64,000 nucleotides of DNA from Phyllobates terribilis (lineage: Eukaryota): contig NW_027362773.1 of NCBI RefSeq assembly GCF_046119375.1, positions 112,840,001 to 112,904,000 of the forward strand. Reading direction: 5' to 3'. The translations under genes were made by a program, and so were the position numbers. Every line of letters starts with the position of its first letter. Position 1 is the first letter of the stretch. The notes below the pieces were generated by a model. It saw nothing but the letters and a program-made list of their open reading frames with translations. It made no database searches and was not told the origin of the DNA. This document shows, piece after piece, positions 25,463-63,485 of this stretch.

Positions 25463-27577
25463 TTAAATTCAGAGACCGAGAACTCTGATGAAGAATAGGT
25501 CCCTGAGAGAGGAGGTCCGGACGGTCTGGCAGTCTCCAGGAGGAGTCGACGAGCAGGTTTACCAGATCTGCGTACCAGACGCGTCTTGGCCAATCCGGGG
25601 CTATTAGAATTACCTGTACTCCCTCTGTCTTGATCTTTTTGACGACCCGAGGAATCAATGGTAGAGGGGGAAATAGATAAGGGAGCTGGAACTGAGACCA
25701 TGAGATGACTAGCGCATCTTGAGCGATCGCAAGGGGATCGCGGGACCGGGCTACGAAGGATAGAACCTTGTGGTTTAACCGAGAAGCCATGAGGTCGACG
25801 TCCGGTGTGCCCCATCGTAAGCATATCTGATGGAACACCTCGGGATGGAGAGACCATTCTCCTGAGGCAAGGCCCTGCCGATTGAGGAAGTCGGCCGCCC
25901 AATTGTCGACCCCCGGAATGTGCACTGCTGAGATTGCCGGAACAGTGTTCTCGGCCCAAACTAGCACTCTTGCCACCTCTTTGAAGACGGACTTGCTGCG
26001 TGTTCCTCCCTGACGGTTTATGTACGCCACCGCCGTGGCGTTGTCCGATTGTACGCGGACTGGGAATCCAGCAAGAATGTCCTGCCAGTGACGCAACGCC
26101 AGATAAATTGCCCTTATCTCCAATATATTGATTGGCAGGGAGGCTTCGTGGAGACTCCAACGGCCCTGCACTGTGTGGTGGAGGAAGACTGTCCCCCAAC
26201 CTATGAGGCTGGCATCGGTTGTGACTACCTGCCAGCGAAGTGGCAGGAATGACCTCCAGAGTCTGAAGGAAGAAGGACGAGTCCACTTCTGACATGAGGA
26301 GGTAACCTGATGCGTCGATCTAGAGACGACGGGTTCTTGTCCTATGCCGACAGAAGGGCCAGTTGAAGAGGCCGGGTATGGAACTGGGCAAACGGGACAG
26401 CTTCCATGGCTGCCACCATTTTTCCCAAGACACTCATGCACAAGCGAAGGCGGAGTGGACTCGGGTCGGAGAGAAGGTGAATCCCCCGACGGATAGAGTC
26501 TATCTTCTCCCTTGGGAGAAGGACCCGGGCATGGGTCATGTCGAACTGCATCCCTAGAAAGGTTAAGCGCTGAGATGGGACCAGGGAGGATTTGTCTGTG
26601 TTGATCAACCAGCCTAACCGAGAAAGTGTGTCCAGGGTGATCTGGAGACTGTGGAGACAGTCCCTGAATGTGGGACCCTTGATCATTAGGTCGTCGAGGT
26701 AGGGGATAATTACAATCACCCTGGCTCGTAGAATGGCCATGACCGTCGCCATTACCTTTGTGAAAACCCTCGGGGCGGAGGCAAGCCCGAAGGGGAGAGA
26801 AGTGAATTGGTAATGTGCGCTCTGGAAGGCAAATTGAAGGAACTTCTGATGTGGTGCGTAAATTGGAATGTGAAGATACGCATCCTGAATATCCACTGAA
26901 CATAGGTATTCCCCGGCCTCCATTGAGGCGATTACCGACCTGAGGGACTCCATTCTGAAGTGCCGTACGCGTACCTGTCGGTTTAGTTGTTTGAGGTCTA
27001 GGATCGGACGTAGTGAGCCGTCCTTTTTTGGAACGATGAAAAGATTTGAGTAGAAACCTGAACACCTTTCTTGGATGGGGACTGGAACTATAACTCCTGA
27101 GTGCAGAAGGGAGGCAATGGCCTGAAGGAAACCGGGAAGTCGAGATGAATGCGGGTGGCGGGACCTGAGAAATCGTGTTCTTGGCATGGTGTTGAACTCG
27201 ATTTTGTAGCCTGAGGTCACTATCTCCTTGACCCAGGCATCCTCTATTGCCGATACACAGGGGTCTCGGAACAGAAGAAGACGGCCGCCCACCCTGGGAG
27301 AAATCCCAGGTGGGAGTGACCCGTCATGCTGAGGAAAACCTGTTGGATCGAGATCGGGATTCAGAGGACTTGGAAGAGCGATCCTTTGCACGCCAGCTGG
27401 GAGTTGGCCTAAAGGTAGGCTTACGTTTGTCTTGCTGTGCTGGGGTACGGTCCTGTTGAGAGGAGGATCCTGGTTGAGAGAACCGACGAAAGGACCGGAA
27501 CTGAAGGTAACATTTTCTAGGAAAAGGGCGATTAGGTCTCGACTGAGGAAGGGAAGTGCTCTTGCCCCCAGTGGCAT
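25434..27577 (-). pseudogene. DIRS1 pol: reverse transcriptase, RNase H and Dam-like methyltransferase domain
   Basis: LRPILDL, DIQDAY, LPFGL and YLDD (RT); TDAS, LEIRA, DN and ADFL (RNase H); DLMAS..YLFPP (MT); TGG to TAG stop at 26342-26344 plus a nearby frameshifting deletion. Confidence 0.93.
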
Positions 27578-28808
27578 CAGAGATGATCTGGTCTAATTTA
27601 GACCCAAACAGTCTGGAGCCCTGGAAAGGGAGATTTGTTAGTGATTTCTTGGAAGCCGGGTCGGCGTTCCAAGCCTTCAGCCAAAGAATCCTACGTATAG
27701 CGATGATATTGCTGGAGACGCGTGCTGAACAGGTAGCGGCGTCGAGGGATGCCGTGAGGAGATATTTCCCTGCGTGGGCAATCTGATCCGCTAGGTCAGC
27801 CAGATCGTCTGGGGAAGCCCCGGAAAGGATGCCCTGCCCAAGCTGTTTGGCCCATGCGGAGACTGCCTTTGATACCCAAGTTGAGGCGAAGGAAGGACAA
27901 AAGGAGGTGCCAGCAGCCTCGAAGGCTGACTTAGCCAAGGCCTCAACCTGTCTATCTGTAGTGTCCTTGAGGGAAGAACCATCTGGGAGGGACAGTACCG
28001 TCTTAGCCGAAAGACGATAGACAGGAGGATCCACAGAAGGGGACTCCGTCCATTTGCTGACGAGGTCGTGGTTAAATGGGTATAGCATGTCTAACTGCTT
28101 CTTTCCAGTGAAGCGTTTCTCTGGATGCTCCCATTGTTTTTCAAAGTTTTGAAATTCTGAATGGTTAGAGAAGGTGCGTGCCGGGCGCTTAATTCTCTTG
28201 AAGGAAAAGGAGTAGTCCTGAGAAGGGCTCTCGTCCTCTTTAACATGCAGAGTGTGATTGACGGCCGATATAAGGCGGTCAACCATGTCCTGGACTTTAG
28301 AATATTGGTCCGTATCGGATCCAGAGTCAGAATCTGATTCAGTGTCAGATCCCGGAGCGGCCTCTTGGGAAGAGGTGTGAGATGCAGGGAGCAATTTGGA
28401 GTCTGGAGAGCTGGAGGATGAGCTTGTGTGAGTACGTTTCTGAGAACGTGCCCTCGGTCTGCCCTTAGAAGGAGGGGGCAGGGGTGCCTGCGAATCGTCC
28501 GTTGGAACGTTCGGAGCACTGGTGGCCGTGGATAGCATGGGCAAACTTTCTAGGACCTGCACCAGAGATTGAGATACCTTGGTGAGGTCAGAGACAGACT
28601 GGGACATAGCAACAGCCCACTCCGGAGGAGGGGGAGTTACCTCGTCCTGGGCGGCAGGGGGGTCTTGGGGTGCCAGCATGGTGGGAGGCTTGCAGGTCAA
28701 GCAGAAAGCCGTTGTCAGACCCGCGGGCCACTTAGTACTGCAAAGAGCACAGGCATAATATGTGACTGTGTGAGTGGGACGGACAGAAAGCTCCCTGGGT
28801 TTGGGCAT
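27324..28808 (-). CDS. DIRS1 gag-like ORF1 (494 aa, open)
   Basis: Long ORF upstream of and overlapping pol; N-terminal CxxC..CxxC and vertebrate DIRS ORF1 motifs (P.VDPPV, D..DR.VE, RR..WL..W..D...K..L..LPF.G..LFG..LD). Confidence 0.85.
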   Translation of the reverse strand: MPKPRELSVRPTHTVTYYACALCSTKWPAGLTTAFCLTCKPPTMLAPQDPPAAQDEVTPPPPEWAVAMSQSVSDLTKVSQSLVQVLESLPMLSTATSAPNVPTDDSQAPLPPPSKGRPRARSQKRTHTSSSSSSPDSKLLPASHTSSQEAAPGSDTESDSDSGSDTDQYSKVQDMVDRLISAVNHTLHVKEDESPSQDYSFSFKRIKRPARTFSNHSEFQNFEKQWEHPEKRFTGKKQLDMLYPFNHDLVSKWTESPSVDPPVYRLSAKTVLSLPDGSSLKDTTDRQVEALAKSAFEAAGTSFCPSFASTWVSKAVSAWAKQLGQGILSGASPDDLADLADQIAHAGKYLLTASLDAATCSARVSSNIIAIRRILWLKAWNADPASKKSLTNLPFQGSRLFGSKLDQIISDATGGKSTSLPQSRPNRPFPRKCYLQFRSFRRFSQPGSSSQQDRTPAQQDKRKPTFRPTPSWRAKDRSSKSSESRSRSNRFSSA

Positions 28809-29336
28809 ATGTGACTGACCAGAAATACTGCAGAGGAGGGAGCCTGTGTGGTGCCAGAGTAGGTTCTACCCGGTCTGGAATGTGCACGGTCCCGTATCCC
28901 CAGTCAGAAAGTCCGGAGACGCGGAGACAGGAGCAGAGCTGTGGTGATGAGGCAGTCAGACAGGATGCTGCTGCCGGAGCCAGAACGAGAGCAGCGTAGA
29001 GGGGCGGAGAGTGTTTCCCTGAGCAAGCTAGGGGAGCCAAAGCTCTGATAGGTAGAGGGGATGGGGGGGCGAGCTTAAGAACTTGGCCGCTGATAGGCCC
29101 CTGGGATAAAAGTGGGCGTGACGGAATCGTCATAACGCTCCACAGTCCTGATTGGCCGTTTTCCGGGAGGGGCGTGTACCCGCCCAAAAGAGAAATGCCA
29201 ACCCGAACCCGCCCCCCGAGAAAAAGCGCGGGCAGAATTGCCGCGCAAAAGAGGGAGAGAGAAACGGGGGGGAGGGTTGTTGTTCTGTGGGAGACGCTAT
29301 CCTGGGGAACGCCATTGAGTATGAGGTCCGTCTATC

Positions 29337-30091: not shown

Positions 30092-30589
30092 TCTGTTCCT
30101 TTCTGTTTCTGTTCCTTTCTGTTCCTGTTCCTTTTTTCTGGCTCTGGCCTTCACTCTAGGCCTGCCTCGTGGAGCTGGGCCCAGACTGAGCCACAGCTCC
30201 CTGTCAGCCCTCTCTGGCTGAACTCCTCTTCTCCTCCTGACTGAATCTCTCTCAGAAATAAGATGGTGCCCACCTTATATACCTCCCTCTCTGTGTATGA
30301 GTCCAGGTGACTTGCAACCAATGGGCTCCTACCTATGCCCAGAAACCGTCCTCTCCTGCTCCTACATCACTGGGTTTTCCTCCCCACTCCAGCCAGGGAC
30401 AGGTTCTGTCGTGCCTGCATTACTGTACTAATGGGAGCACCGTTGAGCTGTCCCCCGGAAATGGGGTATGTGTGATGCATGCAGCTAACTGAGTCCCGGT
30501 CCACACACCATCCTTACCCGGGAGTGGGATATCACACCTCTGGTTGAGGTGCAATACCTCTGTAGCGACCGAACCCTCGGGGCGCTACA

Positions 30590-30600
30590 TTCCCCCCTGG
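30590..30600 (-). promoter_or_regulatory. Polypurine tract
   Basis: ccaggggggaa directly precedes TGTAGCG of the 3' LTR on the minus strand. Confidence 0.8.
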
Positions 30601-31191
30601 TAAACCACAGCACGTCCTCGGGCTGGAAAAGAGCAAAGACAATTCAAAAACATACATTTTTAGAATGCATTCGCATATAAGACAATAACCATTTAACCCA
30701 TCCCTTTATGGGAGGCACTTTTCTCCTTTAACGTTACTGGTACACTTTTCTCCTTTAACAAATATTACAAGACTTTCTTCACACATATAAAATACCATAA
30801 AACTCTTTTAGCAGCATATAAAACTTTTCAGTATAAAACATTCTTAAGTAAAACATATTCTTGGGTACTGGCCGCGGTGCAACTTGCGACCAGGTGTTTT
30901 TTCTTCTTAAAGGTGCAACAGTCCAGCAAATTTGTCTTGAGGTAGACGTTGCAGTCTTTTAATAAAACCTGTAGGGGGCGCTTTAGGAAGCGCAACTATT
31001 TACAGGGGCGGCCGCTCTCAGTCCTCGGCCAGGTAGGGAGGGGAATGGCTGTTCTCAGTCCCCAGCCAGATTAGGGAAAAGGGATGGCTGTTCTCAGTCC
31101 CCAGCCAGATTAGGGATATAGGGGGTAACTTCCAAACATCAGTTCTTATACCCTGACGGGTAACTATATACATAGGCACATTTTCTCCTCC

Positions 31192-32043
31192 TTACCACTG
31201 ATGGTATCCTCCATATGCGCCTTGTTCCTCCGGGTAGTCTTCAGGCCTGTCCTGGCCCTCTTGGTACTCGGGGTCCGAGTGGTACTGCTCCTCCTCTCCT
31301 ACCACTCTATGGACGTGGAGGGCGTACAGTCCTTTTGCACCCTTGTGCCGGGTGTAGGTGACCACGTCGCCAGGATATAAATCTCGTCCGCGATGTCCCT
31401 CTGGCAGGTGGCTCTCGACGTCCCTGCGGGTCAGAAAGACGTCGTCGGTGGTTTCAGGGTCCTTGATGAAGCCCCAGCCGCGATCCATCTGAAACTTCAC
31501 CACGGTCCCGGTGACTCTGGGACCGCTGGCAGCTCGGGGTTTCTGTTGGGCTCTTCTCTTCTGCTCCGCACTCCGTGTTTGGAGCCGCTCCTCCCTGACA
31601 CGTCGCTCCCGCCGCTCCCTCTCAAATGTCGCCAGCTGTTGGCGGCAGGACTCCAGTCCACGGGCTGCGTCCGCCCGGGTTTCCTGGGTGAACCCCATCA
31701 GGTTTTCTCCAGTGGGGTCCCACTCGAACTGGGCGTCCTCCAGCGGGGGATAGCTTATCTCTCTGGGCTCCGGAGCTGGTATCAGGGGTTCGCGCGGGGG
31801 CTGGTCTCTCCATTGGCGGCTGCTGATCAGGTCGGCCGGCCATACCAGGGGCAGTCCATCCGGGCCGGTGTGCTGGGCGAATAGATCCACGCCCAGGGGC
31901 AGTATGGCAGGGGGCCCCGGTGGGGGAGCAGCGCCCGGGGGCACTCGGCCTTGCGACCATGCCGGTGGTCGCCTGCTGGTCGTGCCCGGGCGTGGCACCG
32001 TCAAGGAAGGGGGCGCTCGTGAGGCAGTGACGCCCGGGTGCAC
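31192..32043 (-). CDS. LTR-element ORF2: Pro-rich region, coiled coil, cold-shock domain (about 31303-31515), acidic/Tyr-rich tail; true start uncertain
   Basis: VTGTVVKFQMDRGWGFIKDPETTDDVFLTRRDV...LYPGDVVTYTRHKGAKGLYALHV matches the CSD pattern GTVKWF...KGFGFI...DVFVH...L.EG..V.F....G.KG..A.NV. Confidence 0.8.
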   Translation of the reverse strand: MHPGVTASRAPPSLTVPRPGTTSRRPPAWSQGRVPPGAAPPPGPPAILPLGVDLFAQHTGPDGLPLVWPADLISSRQWRDQPPREPLIPAPEPREISYPPLEDAQFEWDPTGENLMGFTQETRADAARGLESCRQQLATFERERRERRVREERLQTRSAEQKRRAQQKPRAASGPRVTGTVVKFQMDRGWGFIKDPETTDDVFLTRRDVESHLPEGHRGRDLYPGDVVTYTRHKGAKGLYALHVHRVVGEEEQYHSDPEYQEGQDRPEDYPEEQGAYGGYHQW

Positions 32044-32095
32044 TAGGCCTTGCGACCCGGCCTATGACGTCTCTCTCTCTTTATTGCGCCCGGGG

Positions 32096-32878
32096 TTAAA
32101 GGGCACGGCGCGGGGCGGGGCGCGACAGCAGTGTTTGCAACCTGAGGCCTAGCTGGTAGCGGCAGAGGTGTGGCGACAGGTGCGGTTCCCGGGGCTTCGG
32201 GCCTTGCAACGGGAGGCTGAGGTATGCTCGCGTTTTCAGGGCTGGGAGTGGTGACGTCCCCGTTACCTGCCTCGGTTGTTGCGGTCTCCTCCGTGGCGTC
32301 GTCCCCGGACTCTGGTCCACCTTCACCGCCCTCGGCGTGCGGCTGGGCGGTGGTAGCGCCTCCTGCGGTCGGGTCACGGCTTGCCTTGCCAACTCCTCCT
32401 TCCACCCGGCGATCACGTCCCGCTGCGCCCGGACCATCCTCCGGTCCAGGTCTTCTAGCGCGGCTTGCGCACGCTCCAGGTCTCTGGGGAGCTGCGCCAG
32501 CAACTCTGTTAGGCTGCATGGTGGCTCAGCCTGCAGCAGGCTACGGGCCAGCGTGTTGGTGGGGTGCGGTGCTCCTTCCATTCCCGGGTGTGGCCTGTCC
32601 AGACTGATCCAGACCGCACCCTGCCCCACAGTTTTCTTTCCTGTCCGCCCCCATTGGGGGTGGTCCTGGGGCCATCTGCTGACAATCACTTTCAGGGGCA
32701 GCCCCCCCACATTGATGGACATCTCTACAGCCGCACTCATGGCTGTTGGGGGCGGGCTCCTTCTTTGGCGCCATTCTGGGACCTGGCCCACGATGGGAGG
32801 TGGCTTCCTGCTGTCTTTTGGCGCGCACATTATGGCGTCCGTTCTGCTGGGGCGGGCGCCATTTTTCAACACAGTCAA
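32096..32878 (-). CDS. LTR-element ORF1, uncharacterised, with coiled-coil segment (first ATG at 32830)
   Basis: 260-codon GC-rich ORF just downstream of the PBS; heptad-like LAQLPRDLERAQAALEDLDRRMVRAQ; no recognisable family motif. Confidence 0.5.
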   Translation of the reverse strand: MTVLKNGARPSRTDAIMCAPKDSRKPPPIVGQVPEWRQRRSPPPTAMSAAVEMSINVGGLPLKVIVSRWPQDHPQWGRTGKKTVGQGAVWISLDRPHPGMEGAPHPTNTLARSLLQAEPPCSLTELLAQLPRDLERAQAALEDLDRRMVRAQRDVIAGWKEELARQAVTRPQEALPPPSRTPRAVKVDQSPGTTPRRRPQQPRQVTGTSPLPALKTRAYLSLPLQGPKPREPHLSPHLCRYQLGLRLQTLLSRPAPRRAL

Positions 32879-32940
32879 TTTCGATTAAACAGTCTCTTTC
32901 TCTTCAGGGCGCAATACCCGTTGGTGGCGGGTTGGTAACG

Positions 32941-32958
32941 ATCCTGCCGACTACATCA
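32941..32958 (-). promoter_or_regulatory. Primer-binding site complementary to the tRNA-Ser 3' end
   Basis: Plus-strand atcctgccgactacatca versus tRNA-Ser(AGA/TGA) 3' end atcctgccgactacgcca (16/18), 5 nt inside the 5' LTR end. Confidence 0.8.
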
Positions 32959-35900
32959 AAAGTTGACGCGCCCCCTGGGCCGCGTGGGGAACCCGGAACC
33001 GGGCCCTTTTTGTGGACGCTGGGGGTTGTAGTCACCGTGGCGGCGACCCGGTCCCGTGGCTCAGGGTGGTCAAACCAGTGGCAGTCTTTATAGGGTTTTT
33101 GTGGTTTAATGTCCGACTATGCCACCCGTGGATTGCGGTCAGTGCGAACCGCCGCTGCAAGGCTGGGGCTGATGGTGTATGCAGCTGAGGTCATGTAACT
33201 CCCCACGGGAGGAGTGCAGCCCCAGGGCAGTGTAGTAGATGGTGGGGGTGATGGTGCGCGGGCGTCCCAGCACTAGTAGTGCTGTATGCGGTGAGAAAGC
33301 ACAGAGACAAGGTATTGCAGTTCAAGTTCTTTTACTCACAGTTCTCATCCAGGTCACTTATGCGCAGGTAGGACCGCCAGAGCCGTGCTGCATCCACCAG
33401 GCAGGGGGCCCGGTCAACCCCCAGGTAATTACGGAGTGTGGCACAGGACTCCCTTCTATCCTTTCGTCAGCCGTGCCCCACCAGTGACACTACTTCTGTC
33501 CAGCTGCCTCGGTCTTCTCTTGGGAGGCTGGGTGTCCACTTCCCTGACCCTATGTGGTGTGCCTTTCTAGTAGGTGTAGTGAGGGGTCGCACCAGTAAAT
33601 GGTCACGACCGCCGGTCCTTGGCTGAGGATTAGTCGCCTCTACCAACTTGGGATCCGGTACCCTGTTCTGCCAACCCGTCACCCGCAATCTCCTGGGTCC
33701 TTAGGGTTCCTTCTGCCTTCGTGTCTCTGGGCCTCTCTTGGTGTTCTGTTCCTTTCTGTTTCTGTTCCTTTCTGTTCCTGTTCCTTTCTGTTCCTTTCTT
33801 CTGGCTCTGGCCTTCACTCTAGGCCTGCCTCGTGGAGCTGGGCCCAGACTGAGCCACAGCTCCCTGTCAGCCCTCTCTGGCTGAACTCCTCTTCTCTTCT
33901 CCTCCTGACTGAATCTCTCTCAGAACTAAGATGGTGCCCACCTTATATACCTCCCTCTCTGTGTATGAGCCCAGGTGACTTGCAACCAATGGGCTCCTAC
34001 CTATGCCCAGAAACCGTCCCCTCCTGCTCCTACATCACTGGGTTTTCCTCCCCCCTCCCCACTCCAGCCAGGGACAGGTTCTGTCGTGCCTGCATTACTG
34101 TACTAATGGGAGCACCGTTGAGCTGTCCCCCGGAAATGGGGTGTGTGTGATGCATGCAGCTAACTGAGTCCCGGTCCACACACCATCCTTACCCGGGAGT
34201 GGGATATCACACCTCTGGTTGAGGTGCAATACCTCTGTAGCGACCGAACCCTCGGGACGCTACATAAGCATCGGCAGGGAAAAGAGAAGCTTCCCTATTA
34301 ACCCATGATTGAGATGAGAGGGCTGAGGGAGCAGCAGGGATGAATTGTACCTTTCTCGATGACTGTTCTTGCTCCTTCCCTCTGAGGATGTACACAGGAG
34401 GTCCTCCGTGGATAGGGGGGATCCTGGCTTTTCCTCCTTCCCGCACTGACCGGTCCTGAACAGCGCAGGAGACGGTGTCGACCTCAGAATCTGGGGGAAG
34501 GTCACCGTAGTGACCACCGTCTCCCTCCCAGTCCGCTCTGAGGAGGGGGCTGGCGTGGGGAATGGGCAAGGACTGGCCACCAAGAATCACCCTGAGACAC
34601 CCTAAGGTGGCAGGGGATAGGTCCTGTCCAGCGGGTCCGAGAGTGGGCGATGTGGGGGTAGCCACATTGCTCTCTCGATCGCTAGTGGATTAACAGGGGA
34701 CGCAATGTGCCCTGTTAGCCTGAAGAGCTGTATCTGAAAAATAAAGATGAAATGTTAATAACACACAACAGGGTTGGATCTGAGAAGATCCAGGTCTACC
34801 TCTTACAGACACTAAGCTTAAACTGGTGAGCTTGATGCCTGTAGGCGGGTGTATACTGCGGAGGAGGAGCTTTTTTCTTTTTTGCCTAGTGTCAGCCTCC
34901 TAGTGACAACAGCATACACCCATGGTCCTGTGTCCCCCAATGAAGCGATAAAGAAATATTTGACTCTTCAGATTTTGTGGTATACTAGCCTGATGAAGAG
35001 ATCTGTGTAGTCTCGAAAGCTTGCAATTTGTTACCATCTTTTCAGTTAGCCATTAAAAGGTATCAACCACTGAGGACTCTCAAATCTATATATTTTTCTA
35101 AAAAGGGCGGAAACTTTATGGTTGCATACTGAGTAGTGGCACAGAAACTGGTTGCACTGGTGCAGACAACAGGGCCTGCAACTACTCCCTCAGATCTCAG
35201 GGTCACTTTTTTCCTTTGTAGACCGCCCTCCAAAATCTCTGACTGGCCTCGAGGTGCTGTCAACTTCTCCTTTTATAATTTGACTCCACCTAGAATGGAG
35301 GCTATATACCGACCACCTACAAAACACTTCACTTATAGTACGTTTTGGCTATGTCCCACAATGAGCTTTTGGTGAGTTTTTGATGTTGAAGATTTTCTGC
35401 GCCCATTAAGTAAGATCAGTTACTTGCATTTTTTTCTAAAAAAAAACACAGTGTAAAAAAACTTACCAAAACTCATTGTGGGAACGTAGCCTTAAAATGC
35501 TAAAGCTGCATAGCATGCAATATTTGCAACACAAAAGACTAAAAATAGTTGGCACAATTGGTAAGCCTACGTATTCGCGCCTGACGTCATCTGTGACTGA
35601 CTCAATCTTCTGAAATGTGTAAACTGGCGTCTGGTATTTTTTTTTCGACTGAATGGAATCACAAATTGTTCGAATTTGACGGGATCTGAGAATTTCATAA
35701 AATTTGACTTAAATTTGAGTTTCTATTGAATCAATTCAAGTCACTAGTCACGTCAGGTGATACAATTTTGGGGTTCTACGAGCTCAGGTTTCCACCAATT
35801 CCCAAAATGATTTCAATGATGCACAACTATTGTGAAATAAATGTCAGAGAAATCTCACACACCGTTCTTATGATGTAGGTAACGTTTTCTTTTAATGCAC

Positions 35901-39802: not shown

Positions 39803-41390
39803 CAGTACAGACCAAAAGTTTGGACACACCTTCTCATTTAAAGATTTTCTGTATTTTCATGACTATAAAAATTGTACATTTACACTGTAACACATCAAAA
39901 CTATGAATTAACACATGTGGAATTATATACTTAACAAAAAAGTGTGAAACAACTGAAAATATGTCTCATATTCTTGCACACTCTTGGCATTCTCTTGATG
40001 AGCTTCAAGAGATAGTCACCGGAAATGGTCTTCCAACAATCTTGAAGGAGTTCCCAGAGATGCTTAGCACTTGTTGGCCCTTTTGCCTTCACTCTGCGGT
40101 CCAGTTCACCCCAAACCATCTCGATTGGGTTCAGGTCTGGTGACTGTGGAGGCCAGGTCATCTGGCGTAGCTCCCCATCACTCTCCTTCTTGGTCAAATA
40201 GCCCTTACACAGCCTGGAGGTGTGTTTGGGGTCAGTGTCCTGTTGAAAAATAAATGATGGTCCAACTAAACGCAAACCGGATGGAATAGCATGTCGCTGC
40301 AAGATGCTGTGATAGCCATGCTGGTTCAGTATGCCTTCAATTTTGAATAAATCCCCAACAGTGTCACCAGCAAAGCACCCCCACACCATCACACCTCCTC
40401 CTCCATGCTTCACGGTGCGAACCAGGCATGTAGAGTCCATCCATTCACCTTTTCTGCGTCGCACAAAGACATGGTGGTTGGAACCAAAGATCTCAAATTT
40501 GGACTCATCAGACCAAAGCACAGATTTCCACTGGTCTAATGTCCATTCCTTGTGTTCTTTAGCCCAAACAAGTCTCTTCTGCTTGTTGCCTGTCCTTAGC
40601 AGTGGTTTCCTAGCAGCTATTTTACCATGAAGGCCTGCTGCACAAAGTCTCCTCTTAACAGTTGTTGAAGAGATGTGTCTGCTGCTAGAACTCTTGTGGC
40701 ATTGACCTGGTCTCTAATCTGAGCTGCTGTTAACCTGCGATTTCTGAGGCTGGTGACTCGGATAAACTTATCCTCAGAAGCAGAGGTGACTCTTGGTCTT
40801 CCTTTCCTGGGGCGGTCCTCATGTGAGCCAGTTTCTTTGTAGCGCTTGATGGTTTTTGCAACTGCACTTGGGGACACATTCAAAGTTTGCCCAATTTTTC
40901 GGACTGACTGATCTTCATTTCTCAAAGTAATGATGGCCACTCGTTTTTCTTTACTTAGCTGCTTTTTTCTTGCCATAATACAAATTCTAACAGTCTATTC
41001 AGTAGGACTATCAGCTGTGTATCCACCTGACTTCTGCACAACACAACTGATGGTCCCAACCCCATTTATAAGGCAAGAAATCCCACTTATTAAACCTGCC
41101 AGGGCACACCTGTGAAGTGAAAACCATTTCCGGTGACTACCTCTTGAAGCTCATCAAGAGAATGCCAAGAGTGTGCAAAGCAGTCATCAAAGCAAAAGGT
41201 GGCTACTTTGAAGAACCTAGAATATAAGACATATTTTCAGTTGTTTCACACTTTTTTGTTAAGTATATAATTCCACATGTGTTAATTCATAGTTTTGATG
41301 TCTTCAGTGTGAATCTACAATTTTCAAAGTTATGAAAATACAGAAAAATCTTTAAATGAGAAGGTGTGTCCAAACTTTTGGTCTGTACTG
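39803..41390 (-). mobile_element. Tc1-family transposon, DD38E (Intruder-like), 1588 bp
   Basis: TA TSDs; TIR cagtacagaccaaaagtttggacacacc; right TIR about 268 bp, left TIR 227 bp owing to a 41-bp deletion. Confidence 0.93.
39931..40976 (-). pseudogene. Frameshifted DD38E transposase
   Basis: MARKKQLSKEKR (HTH), LWSDESKF, FQQDTDPKH and SPDLNPIE with 38 residues between D and E; frameshift near 40680; C-terminus deleted. Confidence 0.9.
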
Positions 41391-41602: not shown

Positions 41603-43036
41603 CTGAAATTTGAAGAGATTTTAAGTAGTTGACTTTTGGTTAAAAAAAAATCTAAATAAATAATTTTTAGAACCTTTACAGGATTAATGTGTTTGAGGCT
41701 ACATTTTCATGATGAGTTTCTGGTGAGCTTTTTATACTGCATATTTTTGAAAAAATGCAAGAATCTATTTTACTTAATGGATGCAGAAATGGTGCAGAAA
41801 ATCTGCAACATCGAAAACTCACCAAAAGCTCATCATGGGAACGTAGCCTTACTCACCACTGTAAAAATAATAAAATGTGCTGAACATATTGCTAACACTG
41901 CTTAGCCCATTAATTGGCTGCAGTCAATCAATCAATTGTATGGCAGTCAGATGAATTTGAAGCTTAGGCTTTTTATCCTTTTAAATCTGCCGCACTATAC
42001 AACCGTCTGTGAAGGATGGCACCAAAGAGATCACGCGGAATCCCACCGCGGCCACCACATGTGAAGGATCCGCACCTCGCCACCCTGCCTGACGTCACTA
42101 TTACATCAGAAGGATCACGTGATACGGTCTCCCCACTTGCACCAATGTGCTGTTCCATCCCATCTAGGGGCACGTAAGGTCAGCTTGGCACAGCTTTACA
42201 CAGACACCCCTTGTCCATACGGGCCCAGGGAGGCACTGCACAGAAAATCACGGAATACACTAGCCTGTGATCTACTGTGACGGTGAGTCACGGAGACTTT
42301 CTCCCATAGCAGGGAGGATCGTGGAGGGAGTTTAAGGCGTAGGCGCGAGATTACAGCGCCACAATTGCACGTCACAGGACACTGTGATATGCAGGGGAGG
42401 TGGGTATTATTATAATGAAGAGAGGAGGTGGGGATTCTTTCCGTGCCTGGGGCATGGAAGGAATTATTAACCTAAAGATATAAGATTTCACCGCAACAAG
42501 ACCATTAATATGAGGTATACAGGTAGGACTAGATTAACATTTCTATCACCTGTATGCCCAATAGGTTATATACAGTACTTCCCAGGGGGTGACAGATTCC
42601 CTTTAAAGGACAGTCCTAAGGAGGCGGTTCTGGTGCCATCGGATCACGCCGGGTCCCTGCTACGTGTTAAGACCAAACACAGCTTTGCTATCTTTTTCCT
42701 ACTAGCTATTCTACATATCTCCCCACCCTGTGACACCAGAACGGATCGAGGCCCTGGAAAGTGTTTGGTCCGGTCTGGGGATCTCGGAAATATACACGAT
42801 GTACAGCTAGGATGTATAGTATCTCCATATTCTCCTTATGAAATCCTAGCTATCTGAACAAGGCAGACTGCATGATATCCACATGGTAAGCAAGTGTTTG
42901 TCCTGCTCTGAGCAGGTCAAGGTGTGAGATCTGTCACCACAGCCTTTTGACTCTTGACCCCCCCATGCTGCTGCTAGATGTTCTGTACAGCCACAGGCTG
43001 AAGAGAGTTTTATGATCCCATGCCAAATAGGATACA

Positions 43037-44619: not shown

Positions 44620-45080
44620 GGGTGGATGGATGGATAGAAAGAAGGATGGATGGAAAGAAAGATGAATGGATGGATGGAAAGAAGGATGGATGAAGGAATG
44701 ATGGCTGTATGGAANNNNNNNNNNNNNNNNNNNNNNNNNNNNNNNNNNNNNNNNNNNNNNNNNNNNNNNNNNNNNNNNNNNNNNNNNNNNNNNNNNNNNN
44801 NNNNNNNNNNNNNNNNNNNNNNNNNNNNNNNNNNNNNNNNNNNNNNNNNNNNNNNNNNNNNNNNNNNNNNNNNNNNNNNNNNNNNGGAGGAAAGATGCAT
44901 GGATGGAAAGAAGGAAGGATGGATGGATGGAAAGAAGGATGGATGGATGGACAGATGGATGGATGAATGGAAAGAAGGATGGAAAGAAGGATGGAATAAG
45001 GATGCATGGATGGATGGATGGATGGAAAGAAGGATAGATGGATGGATGGAAAGAAGGATAGATTGATGGATGGAAAGAAG

Positions 45081-47249: not shown

Positions 47250-48054
47250 ATTACTACTCAGTTTGATTGCTGTGTCCAGCTCTGCTACATTTAACTTACA
47301 TTGCAAACCCGGCTCTGCTGCATCAGTTGTTCATCCTTTTGATTATCATCATCTCTCTGATATTAACATGTTACTCTGCTTCCTTGTGGATTACAACTCT
47401 GCTACACTAGTTGCCATTGCTCCAAATCTGCTACATCGTTGCCATTGTTCCTTCTAGATCATCTTACTGCAACAAATCCTTTGTCCTTGCCGCCTGGTAC
47501 TGCTCATCCGAAAAAGGGCTTTGAGGATGCACCTCTCCAAATGAGACATATCTCAAACACTGTGCAAACTGACCTATGGTACTTTTATTTTTAGATCTGC
47601 AGTATGTCAATTTTTCGAGCAGGTGCACCATGTAATTGCATTCAATATGGAAGCGCCTATGCGTTTTTAGTATGTTTCCGCTGCAAAAACACAATATAAC
47701 ACATGTAATCCGCACAAGACAGTATCAATCAATTTTTGTCAAGGCTTAATACCAAGAAATAATAAAAAATGAGTAGTTTAATTGAATGCATGACATACCA
47801 TAAAGAGACAAAAACTGCAGCGTTAAAACCATGATAACGCAAGCAAAAAAAAAACCACACTCAAAAACACAATGAATAAAATGCAAGTAACCTAATTTAG
47901 CAAATAGGTGCTGAATATATGCAATATCAAAAACTTACCATGTGCACACTGAGGTTTTTTAGTAGTTTTTGGAGCAGGAACTGAAAGGAAACTTGAAATC
48001 CTCCTCCATATCTCAGAACTCATCAATAATTTTAAGTTTATGTTCCTCAGATCT

Positions 48055-48111
48055 CTCATACTTTGCACTGATGAGGGGCAATAGCCCGAAACATCATGTC
48101 TGCAAATTGAG
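48055..48111 (+). ncRNA. Type I hammerhead ribozyme, copy 1 (predicted cleavage after C48100)
   Basis: tttgca CTGATGA gggg-caata-gccc GAAA c-atcat-GTC tgcaaa: intact core, stem I 6 bp plus ctca/tgag extension, stem II, minimal palindromic stem III. Confidence 0.85.
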
Positions 48112-48384
48112 TTTCTGCTTTGGCTTTTATCCTAAGTCATATTGCAAGACTCATTAATGAGTTGATTGTGACTTGTAGGATCGCTGCTTCCAACAGGTGG
48201 CGCTATAGAGTACATGTCCTCTTCCTCTCTGAAGAGTCAATTTGCATATTTAATTTCCCTGAGGAGCATTGCACATTAAATAAACCCCTTTACATTGGTA
48301 TGTCAGGGTCGGTATGTAACTCTCCACACGGAGAGACCTTATCCCTTAGACCTCAGTCCAGAGCCTCATACCTAACCAAATCAG

Positions 48385-48445
48385 ATCTCATACTTTGCAC
48401 TGATGAGGGGCAATACCCTGAAACACCATGTCTGCAAATTGAGAT
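48385..48445 (+). ncRNA. Type I hammerhead ribozyme, copy 2 (predicted cleavage after C48432)
   Basis: tttgca CTGATGA gggg-caata-ccct GAAA c-accat-GTC tgcaaa; G10.1-U11.1 wobble; atctca/tgagat stem I extension. Confidence 0.8.
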
Positions 48446-49929
48446 TCTGCTTTGGCTTTTATCCTAAGTCATATTGCAAGGCTCGTTAAAGGGTTGATAT
48501 TGACTTGTAGGATCGCTGCTTCCATCAGGTGGCGCTATAGAGTTCCAGTCTTCTTCCTCTCTGAAGAGGCAATTTGCATGTTTAATTTCGCAGAGGAGCA
48601 TTGCACATCAAATAAACCTCTTTACATTGGTATGTCAGGGCCAGTATGTCACTCTCCACAAGGAGAAACCTTACCCCTTAGACCTGAGTTTATATTCCAA
48701 AATCTCAGCAAAAAGACTTTGAGTGCATGTAGCCTTAGAGAATATTTTTTTCCAAACTGGTTGCTTAGTAGACATCTTCCTGTTCCTAAGGATCAAGATA
48801 AAGATCCCTATGTGCCAGACTCCGGACCACATTGAGTAAAAAGTAAACTTTATCTTTTTTGTTTCCTCTTTCACTTACCAAAATTAACAGACTCAGTTTC
48901 ATTAAGACTAGCACTTTGAACTTGTTTCAATGAAAGGATCGCTGGACTAAGATACATCAAGTTTATTAAAAGGCGTAAGCACTAACATCTTACAACAGCC
49001 ATGTGTTTCCGGCAGAAATGTTTCTCCAGCCAGGGACAAAAATTAAGATCAATTTGTTAGGCAGACTTTGCTACACCATGTCCAGCTCTGTGTAATTTTT
49101 GAAAAGTTGGCGGATCTGATCTTGCATAGACTGGTGTAAAAACTTTGGGTCCGATTCATTAAAGTTTTTATGCCCAAAAACCAGAATTGCACCAAAATCT
49201 AGCTATTTTTGACATGTTAAAGTCAGAGTTCTGGTGTGTGGAATTTTTGTAGAATTTTAGGCTACGTTCCCACGATAAGTTTTTGGTGAGTTTTTTACTC
49301 TGCGTATTTTCAAAAAAATGCAAGTAACCTATTTTACTTAATGGGTGCAGAAAATCTGCAATATAAAAAACTCACCAAAAATTCATTGTGGGAACATAGC
49401 CTTAGGGTTTGGTTATCAAAATATAGCATCTTCCAAGTATAGCATTTTTTCTACAAACATTTTTATAGGACCCGAAATAAGCCATTTAAGACAGTAATGA
49501 CAATTTTCAAATGTCAATACAAATGCATGCAAAAAAAACATAAAAATTCTTGAAATACTTGGTGTTTTTACATGTTTTAAAATGCAGAAAAAAAAATGTG
49601 AGTCCTGAGAGTATGTGCACATGTTGAGTATTTTTCTGCTCTAAATTCGTGTATGTTGCCAAGAAAAACACAACGTAAAATAAGTGTTATTATAATGAAT
49701 CAGTTTACCAAAGAATAGCTAAAATACATGATTTATTTTTTTTAAATGGCTAACCTCAGACCTGTGGGGAAACCCAGGATCTTATATGGCTCCTCCAGTT
49801 AGGCAGTTGGGATCCGGCTGTCAATCAGCAGTACGTCGGAAGTTTCACCCCGTCAACAGAACAGAAAAGAAGCCACTACTCTGTCGACGTGACATCAGCA
49901 GAGGCAGCTGAATCGAAAATCACAACAAG

Positions 49930-57540: not shown

Positions 57541-58369
57541 CTAAAATAGAGAAAAATTTTGAAAAAATAAGCTTCATATAAATATTAAATTCATTTCACT
57601 AATACATTACATCAGGCAGAATTCTATGGATAAGCCAAGAATCATGTTGGCTTGAACAATTCAGAATATCATAACTTTTTCCTGATTAGTTTCAGTCGTA
57701 GTAATTGGAAATAGACATAAGTTCTGGTGCTGCTGTGTATGAACTCAACCTAATCCCCTCATCGGGTAAAATACAAAAATAATAATAATGTTGCGCCATC
57801 AAAGCAAAGTGGCGTAATGTGGGGTACCAGCGCCCAGTCAAAGACAAGTATTTTGTGTCCTCTTAACCCTATGGCCCATTAGCTGTCCCCGAGCCCCTTC
57901 TACAAGTCTAGTATTGAGCCCCTTATCCCCATGAACATGTATTTTAAGAAAATACTGGATATTTTCCCCATTATCCCTCTATTTTTTTCAGCATTTTGCT
58001 GAAATCAAATATAACATATAAAAAAATATAAAGTTATATATTGCTAGCATTTTTTTTTTGCTCTTTATTTTTTTTTTTATATAATGATATTATTACCCTT
58101 GCCTAGCCCTAACCCTAGCCCCAGTACTATACCTAAACCTAGCCTTGATATTTTGCAGCCTGACTTCAGACCTTGCCTTTGAAATTTCATTTGCCTAGCC
58201 CCCTTGTTTCGATCAGCACCGTTTTGGACTGCTGACTTCGGACTGTGACTTGTTTACTTTTTTGTTTTGCTCCTCTGCCTTTGACATACTCTCTTAGTAT
58301 TTGACCTCAGACTTCTTGACTCCCCTGCCTCACGGTTTGAATGTGAGAAGTGATGATAACCAGTGTCAC

Positions 58370-59779
58370 AATACTATACTTAAACCTAGCCCCCATCCCA
58401 GCCCTGATCCTAGCTTAAACCCTAGCCCCAGTACAATACCTAAACTTAGCCCCCATACTAGCCTTAACCCTAACCCCAATAGTATACCTAAAGCTAGCCC
58501 CCATCTAGACCTAACCCTAGCCCCAATACTATACCTAAACCTAGCCCCCATCCTAGCCCTAACCCTAGCTTAAACCCTTGCCTCAGTACTATACCTAAAC
58601 TTAGCCCCCATACTAGCCTTAACCCTAACCCCAATACTATACCTAAACCTAGCGCTCATTCTAGACCTAACCCTAGCCCCAATACTATACCTAAACCTAG
58701 CTCCCATACTAGCCCTAACCCTAGCCTAAACCCTTGCCCCAGTACTATACCTAAACCTAGCCCCCATACTAGCCTTAACCCTAACGCCAATACTATACCT
58801 AATCCTAGCCCCATTCTAGACCTAACCCTAGCCCCAATACTATACCTAAACCTAGCTCCCATCCTAGCCCTAACCCTAGCCTAAACCCTTGCCTCAGTAC
58901 TATACCTAAACCTAGCCCCCATACTAGCCTTAACCCTAACCCCAATACTATACCTAAACCTAGCCCCTTTCTAGACCTAACCCTAGCCCCAATACTATAC
59001 CTAAACCTAGCTCCCATCCTAGCCCTAACCCTAGCCTAAACCCTTGCCTCAGTACTATACCTAAACCTAGCCCCCATACTAGCCTTAACCCTAACCCCAA
59101 TACTATACCTAAACCTAGCCCCTTTCTAGACCTAACCCTAGCCCCAATACTATACCTAAACCTAGCTCCCATCCTAGCCCTAACCCTAGCCTAAACCCTT
59201 GCCTCAGTACTATACCTAAACCTAGCCCCCATACTATACCTAAACCTAGCCCCATTCTAGACCTAACCCTAGCCCCAATACTATACCTAAACCTAGCTCC
59301 CATCCTAGCCCTAACCCTAGCCTAAACCTTTGCCCCAGTACTATACCTAGCCCCCATACTAGCCTTAACCTTAACCCCAATACTATACCTAAACCTAGCC
59401 CCCATTCTAGGCCTAACCCTAGCCCCAATACTATACCTAAACCTAGCTCCCATACTAGCCCTAACCCTAGCCTAAACCCTTGTCCCAGTACTATACCTAG
59501 CCCCCATACTAGCCTTAACCCTAACCCCAATACTATACCTAAACCTAGCCCCCATTCTAGGCCTAACCCTAGTCCCAATACTATACCTAAACCTAGCTCC
59601 CATCCTAGCCCTAACCTTAGCCTAAACCCTTGCCCCAGTACTATACCTAGCCCCCATACTAGCATTAACCCTAACCCCAATACTATACCTAAACCTAGCC
59701 CCATCCCAGCCCTAACCCTAGCCTCAACCCTTGCCCCAGTACTATACCTAAAACTAGCCTCCACCCTAGCCCTAAACCT
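58370..59779. repeat. Telomere-like (CCCTAA-variant) satellite with about 155-bp higher-order periodicity
   Basis: Built from ccctaa/ccctag/cctaaa hexamers; identical ORF artefacts start at 58805, 58960 and 59115. Confidence 0.9.
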
Positions 59780-60346
59780 ATGGAAGAAATTTTGCACCCT
59801 AGTAAAATTTAGAGCCTGGGGTGATTGTCCCTCTGTCCGCCCCCTTAAGCTATGCCACTATGTCAGAGTAAAGTTTGGGCATGGTAGAGAAGATTTCAGC
59901 ATGTTGGCCATCAACAAACCCAATTATTTGATTCCCTAGGAGAGATGCACTCCTAGAGTTGTCACCCTAGTGAGATAAATATGCATGACAGGTCGATTCT
60001 TCTCTACAGATTTATAACATTCAAGGTAAAGATCAGGAGCTCTCACACCCACCTCTTATACTGACAGAGTGGGAAAAAAAGGGGGAAAATCATACAAAAA
60101 GCCATTATTCTTTGCGATTGGCAGATTTGCCACTCAGAAATATCTCAGGGCTCTTATCTCGAGTCTCCTCAATCAGAATCCCGTGTAAACATGCAAGTGT
60201 AGAAAAATCAAACTTTTCATATTTTCTATGCCCCTATGTAAATATTGATAGGGGAGTTGGGTGCAAAGTGAATTAATCAGCTTTATGGATCTATTTTAAC
60301 ATATTAATGATATAAACTTTAAATTTTAGTTATAAGAAACACTCAC

Positions 60347-60523
60347 CTGTTATAAACCAAGCAAAGGTGAAAATTCCAATAAATCCTTCTAGAATTAAGC
60401 TGCATACCCCCAGAACGCCTCTTATAAACAATAATAAAACGGCCACCAAGTGTGTGACTCCAGAAACCAAAAGAAAGATAGGTATGAGCGGCTGGATTGG
60501 GCAATCGTCTTTGTATGTGGATC
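60347..60523 (-). CDS. TMEM272: TMEM272-like gene A exon (TM2-TM3), 177 nt (not the frame shown in the ORF track)
   Basis: ctcttacacag|..G|gtgagt; GSTYKDDCPIQPLIPIFLLVSGV versus TMEM272 EDCPIQPLIPLYLLVGG. Confidence 0.92.
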
Positions 60524-60574: not shown

Positions 60575-63485
60575 GATATATGTAGCACAAGCGATCAGAT
60601 GATCGCAGCTTGAAGTCTCCTATGGAAACTATTGAAACCAGTAAAAAAATGTTTTTAAAAATATTTAAAAATTTAAAAAAAAATATAGAAAAGTTCAAAT
60701 CACCCCCCTTTTGACCCCATTCAAATAGAACAGTAAAAAAATCAAAAATACACGGATTTGATATTGCCACTTTCACAATCCCCAAATCTATCAATATATA
60801 AAAATAATTAATCCAATCGGTAAACGGCGTAACGAGAAAAAAAATCAAAACGCCAGAATTATGTTTTTTTGGTTGCCCTAACATTGCATTAAAATGCAAT
60901 AATAGGCAATCAAAACATCGGATCTACCCCAAAATGGTATCAATAAAAACATCAGCTCAAGGCACAAAAAATAAACCCTCACCCGGCCTCAGATCCCGAA
61001 AAATGGAGACACTACGGGTCTCGGAAAATGGCAACTTTTTTTATTTTTTTTACAAACTTAGGATTTTTTTTCACCACTTACCGTATTTTTCGGACTATAA
61101 GATGCACTTTTTTCCTCCAAACTTTATAGTCCGAATGTGTGTGGGTGGCTGTGGATGGTGGGGATATGGGGGGGCAGCAGCAGCGCGGAGGAGTGGGGCA
61201 CAGGAGGCAGCAGCGGCTGCTGCAGCCTACACTGTTCCTGCTGCTAAAGAAAATGTATATTCACTGCTCCCCACGCCCATGGCGTGGGGAGCACTGAATA
61301 TTCATTCTCCTTACTCACAGGCGTACAGTGTCTGAAGCAGCTGCGGCTCCTGCAGCGCTCGGCGGTCATTTGTGCCCGCTACTAAAGAGCATGAATATTC
61401 ACCCCCTCTCCACACCCATGGGAGTGGAGAAGGGTGAATATTCATGCTCTTTAACACGCAATCGCCCGGCAGCTGCAGGAGCCTTGGCACGGCTACAGTT
61501 TGCGCCCGCTATTAAGGAGCATGAAGTGACTGCTCCCCATGCCAATAGTCCCGGCGTGGGGAGCAGTGACTCTTCCGGCACAGCATCTGCCTGTGTGAGC
61601 ACGCATGGCGGTGACGTCATGCGCGGCTCACACAGGGAGATCCGTGCTGGCAGCAGAGCAGGACGCGACGCTGGAGCAGAGGGAAGAAAGGTGAGTAGGA
61701 GTGTTTATTTTTTTGTGTAATGGGGATGGAGGTGCCATACATACCAGGATGTGGGGGTGCCATGCATACAAGGATGTGGGGGTGCCATGCATACCAAGAT
61801 GTGGGGGTGTCATGCTGCATGACACCCCCACATCCTTGTATGCATGACACCCCCACATCCTGGTATGCATGAGACTCCCACATCCTGGTATGCATGACAC
61901 CCCCACATCCTGGTATGCATGGCACCCCCACATCCTGGCATGCATGACTCATGCATACCAGGATGTGGGGGTGCCATGCATACCAGGATGTGGGGTTGTC
62001 ATGCATACAAGGATGTGGGGGTGTCATGCATACCAGGATGTGGGGGTGCCATGCATACCAGGATGTGGGAGTCTCATGCATACCAGGATGTGGGGGTGCC
62101 ATGCATACCAGGATGTGGGGGTGCCATACATATCAGGATGTGGGGGTGCCATCCATACCAGGATGTGGGGGTGCCATGCATACAAGGATGTGGGGGTGCC
62201 ATACATACCAAGATGTGGGGGTACCATGCATACCAGGATGTGGGGGTGCCATGCATACCAGGATGTGGGGGTGTCATGCATATCAGGATGTGGGGGTGCC
62301 ATGCATACCAGGATGTGGGGGTGCCATGCATACCAGGATGTGGGGGTGCCATGAATACCAGGATGAAGGGTGCCATATATACCAGGATGATGGTGCAAAG
62401 CATATCAGAATGAGGGATGAGGGGGGGCCATGCATACCAGGATGTGGGGGTGCCATGAATACCAGGATGTGGGGGTGCCATACATATTAAGATGTGGGGG
62501 TGCAATGCATACCAGGATGTGGGGGTGCCATGCATACCAGGATGTGGGGGTGCCATGCATACCAGGATGTGGGGGTGCCATGCATAACAGGATGTGGGGG
62601 TGCCATGCATACCACGATGTGGGGGTGCCATACATATCAAGATGTGAGGGTGCCAGGCATACCAGGATGTGGGGGTGCCATACATATCAAGATGTGGGGG
62701 TGCCATGCATACCAGGATGTTGGGGTTCCATGCATACCAAGATGAGGAGGGGCATGCATACCAGGATGAGGGATGAGGGGTGCCATACATACCAGGATGA
62801 GAGGAGCCTTGCATACCAGGATGAGGGGGGCCTTGCATACGAGGATGAGGGGGCTTTGCATACCAGAATGAGGGGTGCCATGCATACCAGGATGAAGGGT
62901 GCCATATATACCAGGATGATGGTGCAAAGCATATCAGAATGAGGGATGAGGGGGGGCCATGCATACCAGGATGAGGGGTGCCAAGCATACCAGGATGGGG
63001 GATATTAGTACAGAATTGGGGGATATTACCCCCATAACAGTGTTAACAGCAGACTCCTTCCCCCCATAAAAGGGCATCATGACCACATTTTTGCTTAATT
63101 TTTTTTCCTATATTCCTCCTCTAAATCCCAAGTGCGTCTTATCGTCCGGTGCATCTTATAGTCCGAAAAATATGGTAAATAAAAAAGAACCTATACATGT
63201 TTGGTATCTACAAACTCGCAATGACCTGGAGAATAATAATGGCAGGTCAGTTTAATCATTTAGTGAACATGGTTAATAAAGAAAAAACAATAATTGTGGA
63301 ATTGCACTTTTTGGCAATTTCACTGCACTTGGAATTTTTTTCCAGTTTTCCAGTAGATTATATAGCAAAAAACAAGCCCTCACACAGCCATATTGACTGA
63401 AAAAATAAAAAAGTTATGGCTCTAGGAAGAAGGGGAGTATAAAACGAAAGCGGAAAAAATGGAACATGGCCTAGGAGTAAAGGGG
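60575..63485. mobile_element. 5'-truncated non-autonomous piggyBac-like element, interrupted by a Tc2-like element
   Basis: Right end AAGGGG|TTAA; homology to 15070-16470; the host reads through across the TA insertion site. Confidence 0.65.
61081..63175. mobile_element. Non-autonomous Tc2/pogo-like element (2095 bp) filled with a 25-bp minisatellite
   Basis: TA TSDs; TIR ccgtatttttcggactataagatgcac; unit ccatgcataccaggatgtgggggtg at 61730-63000. Confidence 0.8.

Follow-up and report, generated by a model that had tools for sequence, protein, structure and literature searches.

The DNA analysed here is a 64,000-nucleotide stretch of the Phyllobates terribilis genome (contig NW_027362773.1, positions 112,840,001–112,904,000; hereafter the window). 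It carries a 640-bp insertion with two hammerhead ribozyme motifs, which we consider, with a probability of about 0.7, to be a dispersed and decayed copy of a non-LTR (long terminal repeat) retrozyme family of dendrobatid frogs. Judged from its sequence, the insertion is a new member of a class already reported from amphibians, and published consensus sequences could already include the family or a close relative. The copy appears old and, as folding estimates suggest, very likely yields no 332-nt circular RNA, because its own putative promoter would reach the second hammerhead only and both ribozymes carry lesions.

The ribozymes and the interval between them are placed as follows.

48055–48111, plus strand: type I hammerhead 1, with a 6-bp stem I and a 4-bp extension across a 3×1 internal loop; core (C3–A9) at 48068–48074
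48075–48087, 48091–48099 and 48100, plus strand: stem II, stem III and C17 of hammerhead 1, located by descriptor, folding and pair check
48387–48443, plus strand: type I hammerhead 2, with core (C3–A9) at 48400–48406, stem II at 48407–48419, stem III at 48423–48431 and C17 at 48432
48101–48432, plus strand: interval between the two cleavage sites, a hypothetical 332-nt monomer defined by geometry only

The two type I hammerheads lie 332 nt apart in a 332-bp repeat. Each has a complete core, with G12–A15.1 at 48088–48091 and 48420–48423, and a GUC cleavage triplet whose C17 is at 48100 and 48432, respectively. A type I descriptor (core plus three stems) run over both strands of the window returned exactly these two motifs from 55 CUGANGA sites (31 on the plus strand, 24 on the minus), and among 200 dinucleotide-shuffled versions of the window a loose form of the descriptor matched 0.025 times per window and a strict form never. 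Both hammerheads are real and far above chance expectation, and descriptor and shuffles together confirm the claim of an earlier note on this DNA that two tandem type I hammerheads with full core and GUC stand 332 nt apart. Over both copies, standard pairs occupy 33 of the 34 cells of a 17-pair structure; a set of two sequences yields no covariation. Stem I is perfect in both copies, with 6 bp, a 3×1 internal loop and at least 4 further pairs. Stem II is damaged in both, by a G–G at the loop-closing pair (48084) in copy 1 and by a G10.1–U11.1 pair in copy 2. Stem III has 3 bp and a 3-nt loop and forms a palindrome, interrupted by a central C–C, in copy 1 only; in copy 2 the palindrome is lost. 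The earlier note was therefore right about stem I with its extension and about the presence of stem II; its short palindromic stem III describes copy 1 alone.

The Rfam check proposed in that note did not return a hammerhead at curated thresholds. The window gave no match at gathering thresholds, and 901 nt searched at E ≤ 10 gave four matches, none from a hammerhead family. A 91-nt cut-out of copy 1 matched Hammerhead_HH9 with 20.1 bits (E 0.0039), short of the gathering score of 52, and the corresponding cut-out of copy 2 matched RAGATH-1 only (E 3.4). Hammerhead_1 was absent from the output of all these scans (window, 901 nt and the two 91-nt cut-outs). The interval 48101–48432 is predicted to fold at –89.7 kcal/mol (z –2.5). 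An AUG within the hammerhead core opens a 28-codon frame in each copy (48071–48157 and 48403–48489), and a long hairpin is predicted after each hammerhead (48128–48178 and 48460–48510).

The limits of the insertion and its target are these.

48047–48686, plus strand: retrozyme insertion of 640 bp, 1.93 units of the 332-bp repeat, delimited by Tandem Repeats Finder (period 332), local alignment and junction offsets
48035–48046, plus strand: left target-site duplication (TSD) of 12 bp, 11 of 12 identical to 48687–48698
48687–48698, plus strand: right TSD, opening with 3 bases that also continue the repeat unit (microhomology)
48355–48380, plus strand: 26-nt part of the unit that occurs once, between the aligned blocks
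47943–48727, no strand assigned: host palindromic element, which we take to be a miniature inverted-repeat transposable element (MITE), its right arm interrupted by the insertion; its flanks are self-inverted after removal of the insert in silico

The units (48047–48357 and 48381–48689) are identical at 281 aligned positions and differ by 28 mismatches and a single indel of 2 nt, a divergence of 9%. This alignment keeps the tandem unit of the earlier note and corrects its span of 48046–48688 to the limits given above. The TSD adjoins both ends of the insert directly, and the target is AT-rich. With the insert taken out, the flanks align over the junction to an uninterrupted relative at 8394–8455 (74% over 62 nt, E 1.8e–6); since the 12 target bases left of the junction align there (only those 12 on the left), the target is single in the empty relative. 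Neither end of the insert falls at a cleavage site: the 5′ end lies 54 nt before site 1 and the 3′ end 254 nt past site 2, and a poly(A) tail is absent. The stretch 48355–48380 is present only once, so a longer template gave rise to the dimer. No further copy was found within the 64-kb window (best other match E 0.41). There was no Pfam match for open reading frames (ORFs) overlapping the insert (94 ORFs scanned) and no GIY-YIG-like pattern in six frames; a protein search with two frames of the repeat turned up no relative, a weak negative. A plasmid collection gave no match, and a bacterial promoter scan gave 0 sites, its model not being relevant to this host. Related palindromic elements lie in the window at 8228–8465, 35343–35502, 41692–41849 and 49255–49404, besides the target of the insertion itself (47943–48727).

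Non-LTR retrozymes are defined by a unit of 150–450 bp, GC content below 45–50% and a TSD that, when present, exceeds 4 bp (PMC7229834). The insertion has a hammerhead in each of two consecutive units, a unit of 332 bp with 42.8% GC, a 12-bp TSD and no encoded protein by the Pfam scan and the two frames without relatives. Retrozymes were reported in 7 of 7 amphibians surveyed, with a mean unit of 316 bp and co-occurring with Penelope-like elements (PLEs) (10.64898/2026.07.22.740005); Ranitomeya is not named in the main text of that paper. Like the metazoan non-LTR retrozymes represented by axolotl Rtz331 and Rtz353 and the Xenopus REP4 dimers, the insertion has a unit of about 330 bp, GC below 45%, a dimeric form, an intergenic site and an amphibian host. 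It differs from them in that both of its hammerhead copies are damaged, and its stem III of 3 bp with a triloop differs from the axolotl forms described (1 bp in Amex1 and 2 bp in Amex2, with a tetraloop). Axolotl monomers of 331 and 353 nt are reported to cleave poorly (6% and 22% in 1 h) and dimers much better; the RNAs accumulate in linear and circular form, and RtcB ligates them efficiently in vitro (PMC7229834). Only one of nine predicted Xenopus dimers was reported to cleave in vitro (10.64898/2026.07.22.740005).

Newt satellite 2 of Notophthalmus, to which the earlier note had likened the element, shares, as described in PMC2114352, a similar unit (330 bp versus 332 here), a strand-specific hammerhead and an extended stem I. 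A similar small nuclear RNA (snRNA)-type promoter layout may be added, putative here and resting on motifs (a perfect octamer, an SPH-like site with one additional base and a proximal element that is weak against the mammalian consensus). In contrast to the newt repeat, ours lies in an anuran and is seen only as a dispersed dimer, and its helix III is not one base pair with a palindromic tetraloop but 3 bp with a triloop, palindromic in copy 1 only. The assignment to a retrozyme or satellite 2-like unit is supported by size, GC, canonical type I architecture, amphibian host and TSD; the likeness to satellite 2 is one of description.

With the hammerheads of PLE pseudo-LTRs (PMC4209133; PMC11167929) the insertion shares, as far as those accounts go, type I topology, a partial tandem, ends off the cleavage site and an AT-rich target. 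The minimal PLE hammerhead, which the earlier note had invoked, has a helix II of 7–8 bp and a helix I of 4–5 bp as given in PMC4209133; both copies here are canonical instead, with a helix I of 6 + 4 bp, a helix II of at most 4 bp and a helix III of 3 bp. Moreover, no adjacent ORF with reverse transcriptase and GIY-YIG domains was found, the only reverse transcriptase match among 15 ORFs being that of a DIRS-like element at 24–29 kb, and a tail of 30–40 bp is not definable from one insertion. The vertebrate intronic HH9 (Rfam RF02275), the closest Rfam match, resembles our motifs in its core, in a stem I of 6 bp with a UAC loop ahead of it and in a loop 2 of the C-to-A type, but the match reaches only 20.1 of 52 bits, loop 2 has 5 nt, and our motifs sit in a repeat between genes, antisense to those on either side.

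The ribozyme is conserved no better than the rest of the unit and shows no selective conservation. Between the copies, 3 of 49 ribozyme positions differ, against 24 of 251 elsewhere (p 0.59), all three of them located in stem II or stem III, and the differences are spread evenly along the unit at 3–6 per 50 nt. All 15 core positions are identical; at 9% divergence, chance alone would give this with P of about 0.24. The low ratio of transitions to transversions between the units (13:15) was considered as a signal and rejected, as it shows no difference from nine control repeat pairs (104:62, p 0.14).

Folding estimates point to low self-cleavage activity. The canonical stem II of copy 1 (3 bp) is predicted at –4.2 kcal/mol and a slipped register with an extra G after A9 at –7.5; in copy 2 the canonical stem II with its G10.1–U pair is predicted at –4.1 and a register that pairs A9 at –6.5, so that slipping would be favoured by 2.4–3.3 kcal/mol in both stems. 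An extra G after A9 is harmful to the hammerhead. An unpaired base after A9 is described as usual in the minimal hammerheads of PLEs (PMC4209133), so the slipped form of copy 1 is not necessarily dead. Stem III alone would cost +2.1 kcal/mol, and the in-register helix III of a dimer is estimated at –3.8 (copies 1:1), –2.1 (1:2) and –0.1 kcal/mol (2:2), the helix between copies 1 and 2 having two adjacent mismatches. Reaching the catalytic fold would cost 5.7–6.1 kcal/mol in copy 2 and 7.6–11 in copy 1, and an estimated 15.2 kcal/mol would be required to form stems I and II of both copies in the 640-nt ensemble. The spacing of the cleavage sites agrees with the 332-nt monomer and circle of the earlier note; its release is weakly supported in view of the helix III mismatches, the slipped stems II and the lack of selective conservation.

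It appears that the unit also holds a putative snRNA-type promoter that had been missed, following the scheme of distal and proximal sequence elements (DSE and PSE) described in PMC3499247 and PMC2235858. Positions are counted from +1 set at 48381, which corresponds in unit 2 to the 5′ junction of the insertion.

48381, plus strand: predicted snRNA-type start, at the position of unit 2 that matches the insertion 5′ end; cleavage site 2 follows 52 nt later
48190–48203, repeated at 48522–48535, plus strand: presumed CTCF-like motif at –191, with 1 mismatch to the consensus
48240–48247, repeated at 48572–48579, plus strand: perfect octamer at –141 to –134, present in 79 of 5000 unit shuffles
48255–48272, repeated at 48587–48604, plus strand: SPH/ZNF143-like site at –126, separated from the octamer by 7 nt and one base longer in its spacer
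48320–48330, repeated at 48652–48662, plus strand: PSE-like element at –61 to –51

We infer the promoter from the joint layout of octamer, SPH-like site and PSE-like element. When the part of unit 1 outside the ribozyme was shuffled 5000 times, an octamer with an SPH-like site within 40 nt never occurred, nor did an octamer with the first PSE-like hexamer; that hexamer in the –70 to –50 zone was found in 46 shuffles and a CTCF-like match in 16, all counts to be read knowing that the patterns were picked after the sequence had been seen and are partly post hoc. The CTCF-like stretch would also form one side of a short predicted hairpin. The SPH-like site has 2 mismatches only with the longer spacer; with canonical spacing it was not matched at ≤3 mismatches. 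The predicted start would coincide with the 5′ end of the insertion, 52 nt before the cleavage site; for a 5′ end placed at random, the probability of lying 5 nt or less from a given point is 0.033. Ovarian satellite 2 RNAs of the newt reportedly start about 47 nt before the cleavage site. An snRNA-type promoter is reported for newt satellite 2 (PMC2220036). We found no literature description of one in frog retrozymes, in a search that covered subscription and older papers thinly, and an internal promoter is not discussed in the main text of PMC7229834 or 10.64898/2026.07.22.740005 (in one the word promoter occurs 0 times, in the other it refers to T7 only).

It should be noted that the promoter faces objections beyond the choice of patterns. 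In chicken 7SK and type 3 promoters the distance is –215 to –240; the octamer here, at –141, is nearer. No 3′ box was found downstream. The mammalian PSE consensus is unmatched at ≤3 mismatches; the fit is 9 of 14 at –60 in unit 2 and lies outside the top five sites in unit 1. A resemblance of 48320–48330 to a frog-type PSE is our assumption, which a literature search on Xenopus PSE strings left unconfirmed. The SPH-like site is one base longer than the human Z-motifs in Fig. S10 of PMC3499247.

If the promoter is real, the order along the locus is hammerhead 1, promoter, hammerhead 2, promoter. Since the promoter of the first unit lies downstream of hammerhead 1, its transcript would start near 48381 and hold hammerhead 2 only, which would then have no dimer partner in cis and make no second cut. 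A 332-nt monomer would thus need plus-strand read-through from a start upstream of 48047. Schistosoma repeats have been described as following a comparable logic (PMC6765202).

How the copy arose can be outlined conditionally. On balance we favour transcription of a source array in the sense of the hammerheads; RNA polymerase II is the probable enzyme, and the promoter would be an internal one of snRNA type in one unit, with an RNA start about 52 nt before the next cleavage site. In intact arrays, hammerheads with a weak stem III would cut multimers to monomers, which a host ligase can circularise, as is established for axolotl. A helper reverse transcriptase/endonuclease, probably Penelope-like, would nick an AT-rich target with a 12-nt stagger and prime within the RNA 254 nt past site 2; reverse transcription would pass both uncut sites and end 54 nt before site 1, and the copy would then drift neutrally. 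The absence of poly(A) and the ends off the cleavage sites fit the behaviour of the anole PLE enzyme, which is reported to prefer and cut AT-rich DNA, to begin reverse transcription inside the RNA and to use unprocessed RNA (PMC11167929). For the template we lean slightly towards an uncleaved linear transcript, and a circle read for 1.93 rounds has somewhat under even odds. The putative promoter hints at primary uncleaved transcripts, not circles, as template.

Two tandem TMEM272-like paralogues flank the site on the minus strand (20556–60524), with identities to Ranitomeya imitator of 90–95% for gene A and 39–47% for gene B. The gene A exons lie at 60.5, 57.5 and about 55.06 kb, followed by AATAAA at 54845 and 54815; its exon at 60348–60521 is 95% identical to a TMEM272-like protein of R. 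imitator, the other two of its three matches being to Dendrobates and Anomaloglossus, which places the window in a dendrobatid frog. Homologous exons of gene B are found at about 41.6 (a weak match), 36.8 and 20.7 kb. The insertion is intergenic and antisense to both genes, 6.1 kb from the end of gene A and 798 nt from the candidate ATG of gene B. The divergent candidate first exon of gene B that the earlier note had put 0.8 kb away is borne out in distance. Candidate 5′ exons at 47249–47209 and 45710–45647 join each other in frame, but no open join from them to the 41.6-kb exon was found. Cleavage of host pre-mRNA was considered and rejected, as the neighbouring genes are on the minus strand, which bears no hammerhead.

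Could the locus be active, with plus-strand read-through, for example divergent from a gene B promoter, letting the double hammerhead free a 332-nt monomer that circularises? The cores are intact, stem I is perfect in both copies and the candidate gene B ATG is near and divergent; axolotl dimers are reported to cleave far better than monomers and to yield circles (PMC7229834), and one X. tropicalis REP4 dimer is described as highly active (10.64898/2026.07.22.740005). Against this stand the two adjacent mismatches in the helix III between the copies, the slipped registers favoured in both stems II, the cost of folding both copies, the lack of selective conservation, the missing join from the candidate gene B exons and the eight of nine Xenopus dimers reported inactive in the same survey, and we regard an active locus as unlikely. 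Slightly less probable still is that the insert is a heavily 5′-truncated autonomous PLE, a partial pseudo-LTR tandem, and not a member of a separate retrozyme family. The same survey reports that 24 of 57 Xenopus retrozyme families match Repbase transposable elements, 21 of 22 of which are PLEs, at their termini; PLEs are reported to make partial tandems and to be often 5′-truncated (PMC8557442), and the 28-codon frame opened by the core AUG in both copies recalls the anole PLE ORF, which likewise begins in the hammerhead (PMC11167929). However, the hammerheads have the canonical form, with 6 bp in stem I and 4 bp in stem II, and not the minimal one with a helix II of 7–8 bp (PMC4209133), the TSD adjoins both ends, and neither the Pfam scan of 94 ORFs nor the GIY-YIG pattern in six frames gave anything for the insert, nor, as a weak negative, did the protein searches for two frames.

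Retention by the host as a regulatory element between the TMEM272-like paralogues, whether a CTCF boundary or an Oct/ZNF143 enhancer, would suit the intergenic position 0.8 kb from the candidate first exon and the CTCF-like site in each unit (two of the four matches in the window, where 0.64 are expected). This we consider very improbable: the motifs arrived with the element, the CTCF-like stretch doubles as a hairpin arm and the differences between the units are evenly spread. Least credible is the insertion of a single unit followed by its duplication on the spot through slippage or unequal crossing-over, although local amplification of PLE termini has been proposed as the origin of retrozyme tandems (10.64898/2026.07.22.740005). 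The single 26-nt stretch 48355–48380 completes the 332-bp period and matches the target in its first 3 bases only; it must therefore derive from the template and not from duplication in place.

The retrozyme reading itself has arguments against it. Only two repeat copies are at hand, and no PLE link was found in Pfam searches of overlapping ORFs, the GIY-YIG pattern search or protein searches with two frames. The null for the TSD is not zero, as 6 of 833 random position pairs scored equally well (of 1000 draws, 167 that fell on the locus or on the microsatellite/gap region were dropped). Because priming by the anole enzyme does not involve homology, the 3-nt microhomology has no diagnostic value. 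As for the loss of activity, core identity means that some activity is possible, nearest-neighbour energies leave out loop–loop and tertiary contacts and Mg2+, and a 3-bp stem III could permit weak monomeric cleavage by analogy with the axolotl 2-bp stem III type, for which 22% monomer cleavage in 1 h is reported (PMC7229834).

Several other repeats share the window. A retrotransposon at 24410–28865 (minus strand), which we take to be DIRS-like, has long open frames for a gag-like protein (a LAP2alpha match), reverse transcriptase, RNase H and a weak tyrosine recombinase match, and goes with a 117-nt inverted repeat of 99% identity (24019–24135 and 34821–34937). A GC-rich element of about 4 kb at 30223–34265, bounded by direct repeats 97–99% identical (30223–30590 and 33891–34265), contains a 289-aa frame with a cold-shock domain (31192–32061, minus strand, E 2e–8) and looks like a young LTR-type element of unusual kind. 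Three Tc1/mariner transposase remnants lie at 11546–12352, 18465–19680 and 39931–40994. A C-rich satellite at 58369–59780 has periods of 12, 24, 48 and 155 bp, telomere-like hexamers and a GC skew of –0.56, and a 25-bp satellite at 61727–63001 includes an inverted block of five copies (61816–61948). An assembly gap of 171 N at 44715–44885 falls within a tetranucleotide microsatellite, 3.2 kb from the insertion.

As a class member the copy is ordinary, hammerhead retrozyme dimers being known from every amphibian surveyed. Its possible use lies in the anatomy of its junctions, with a 12-bp TSD and a 5′ end about 60 nt downstream of a PSE-like site, which bears on retrozyme transcription and on whether a circle or a linear precursor serves as template. 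As a tentative proposal that we think rather doubtful, frog retrozymes may carry their own snRNA-type RNA polymerase II promoter (octamer, SPH and PSE), a feature cited until now for newt satellite 2 alone, and spread via uncleaved capped primary transcripts, not circles. If this were true, the insertion would be full-length: it would begin at the cap site, include two uncut hammerheads and be closed by the TSD. It would also account for the constitutive expression of amphibian retrozymes, and circles would be a side product and not the transposition intermediate.

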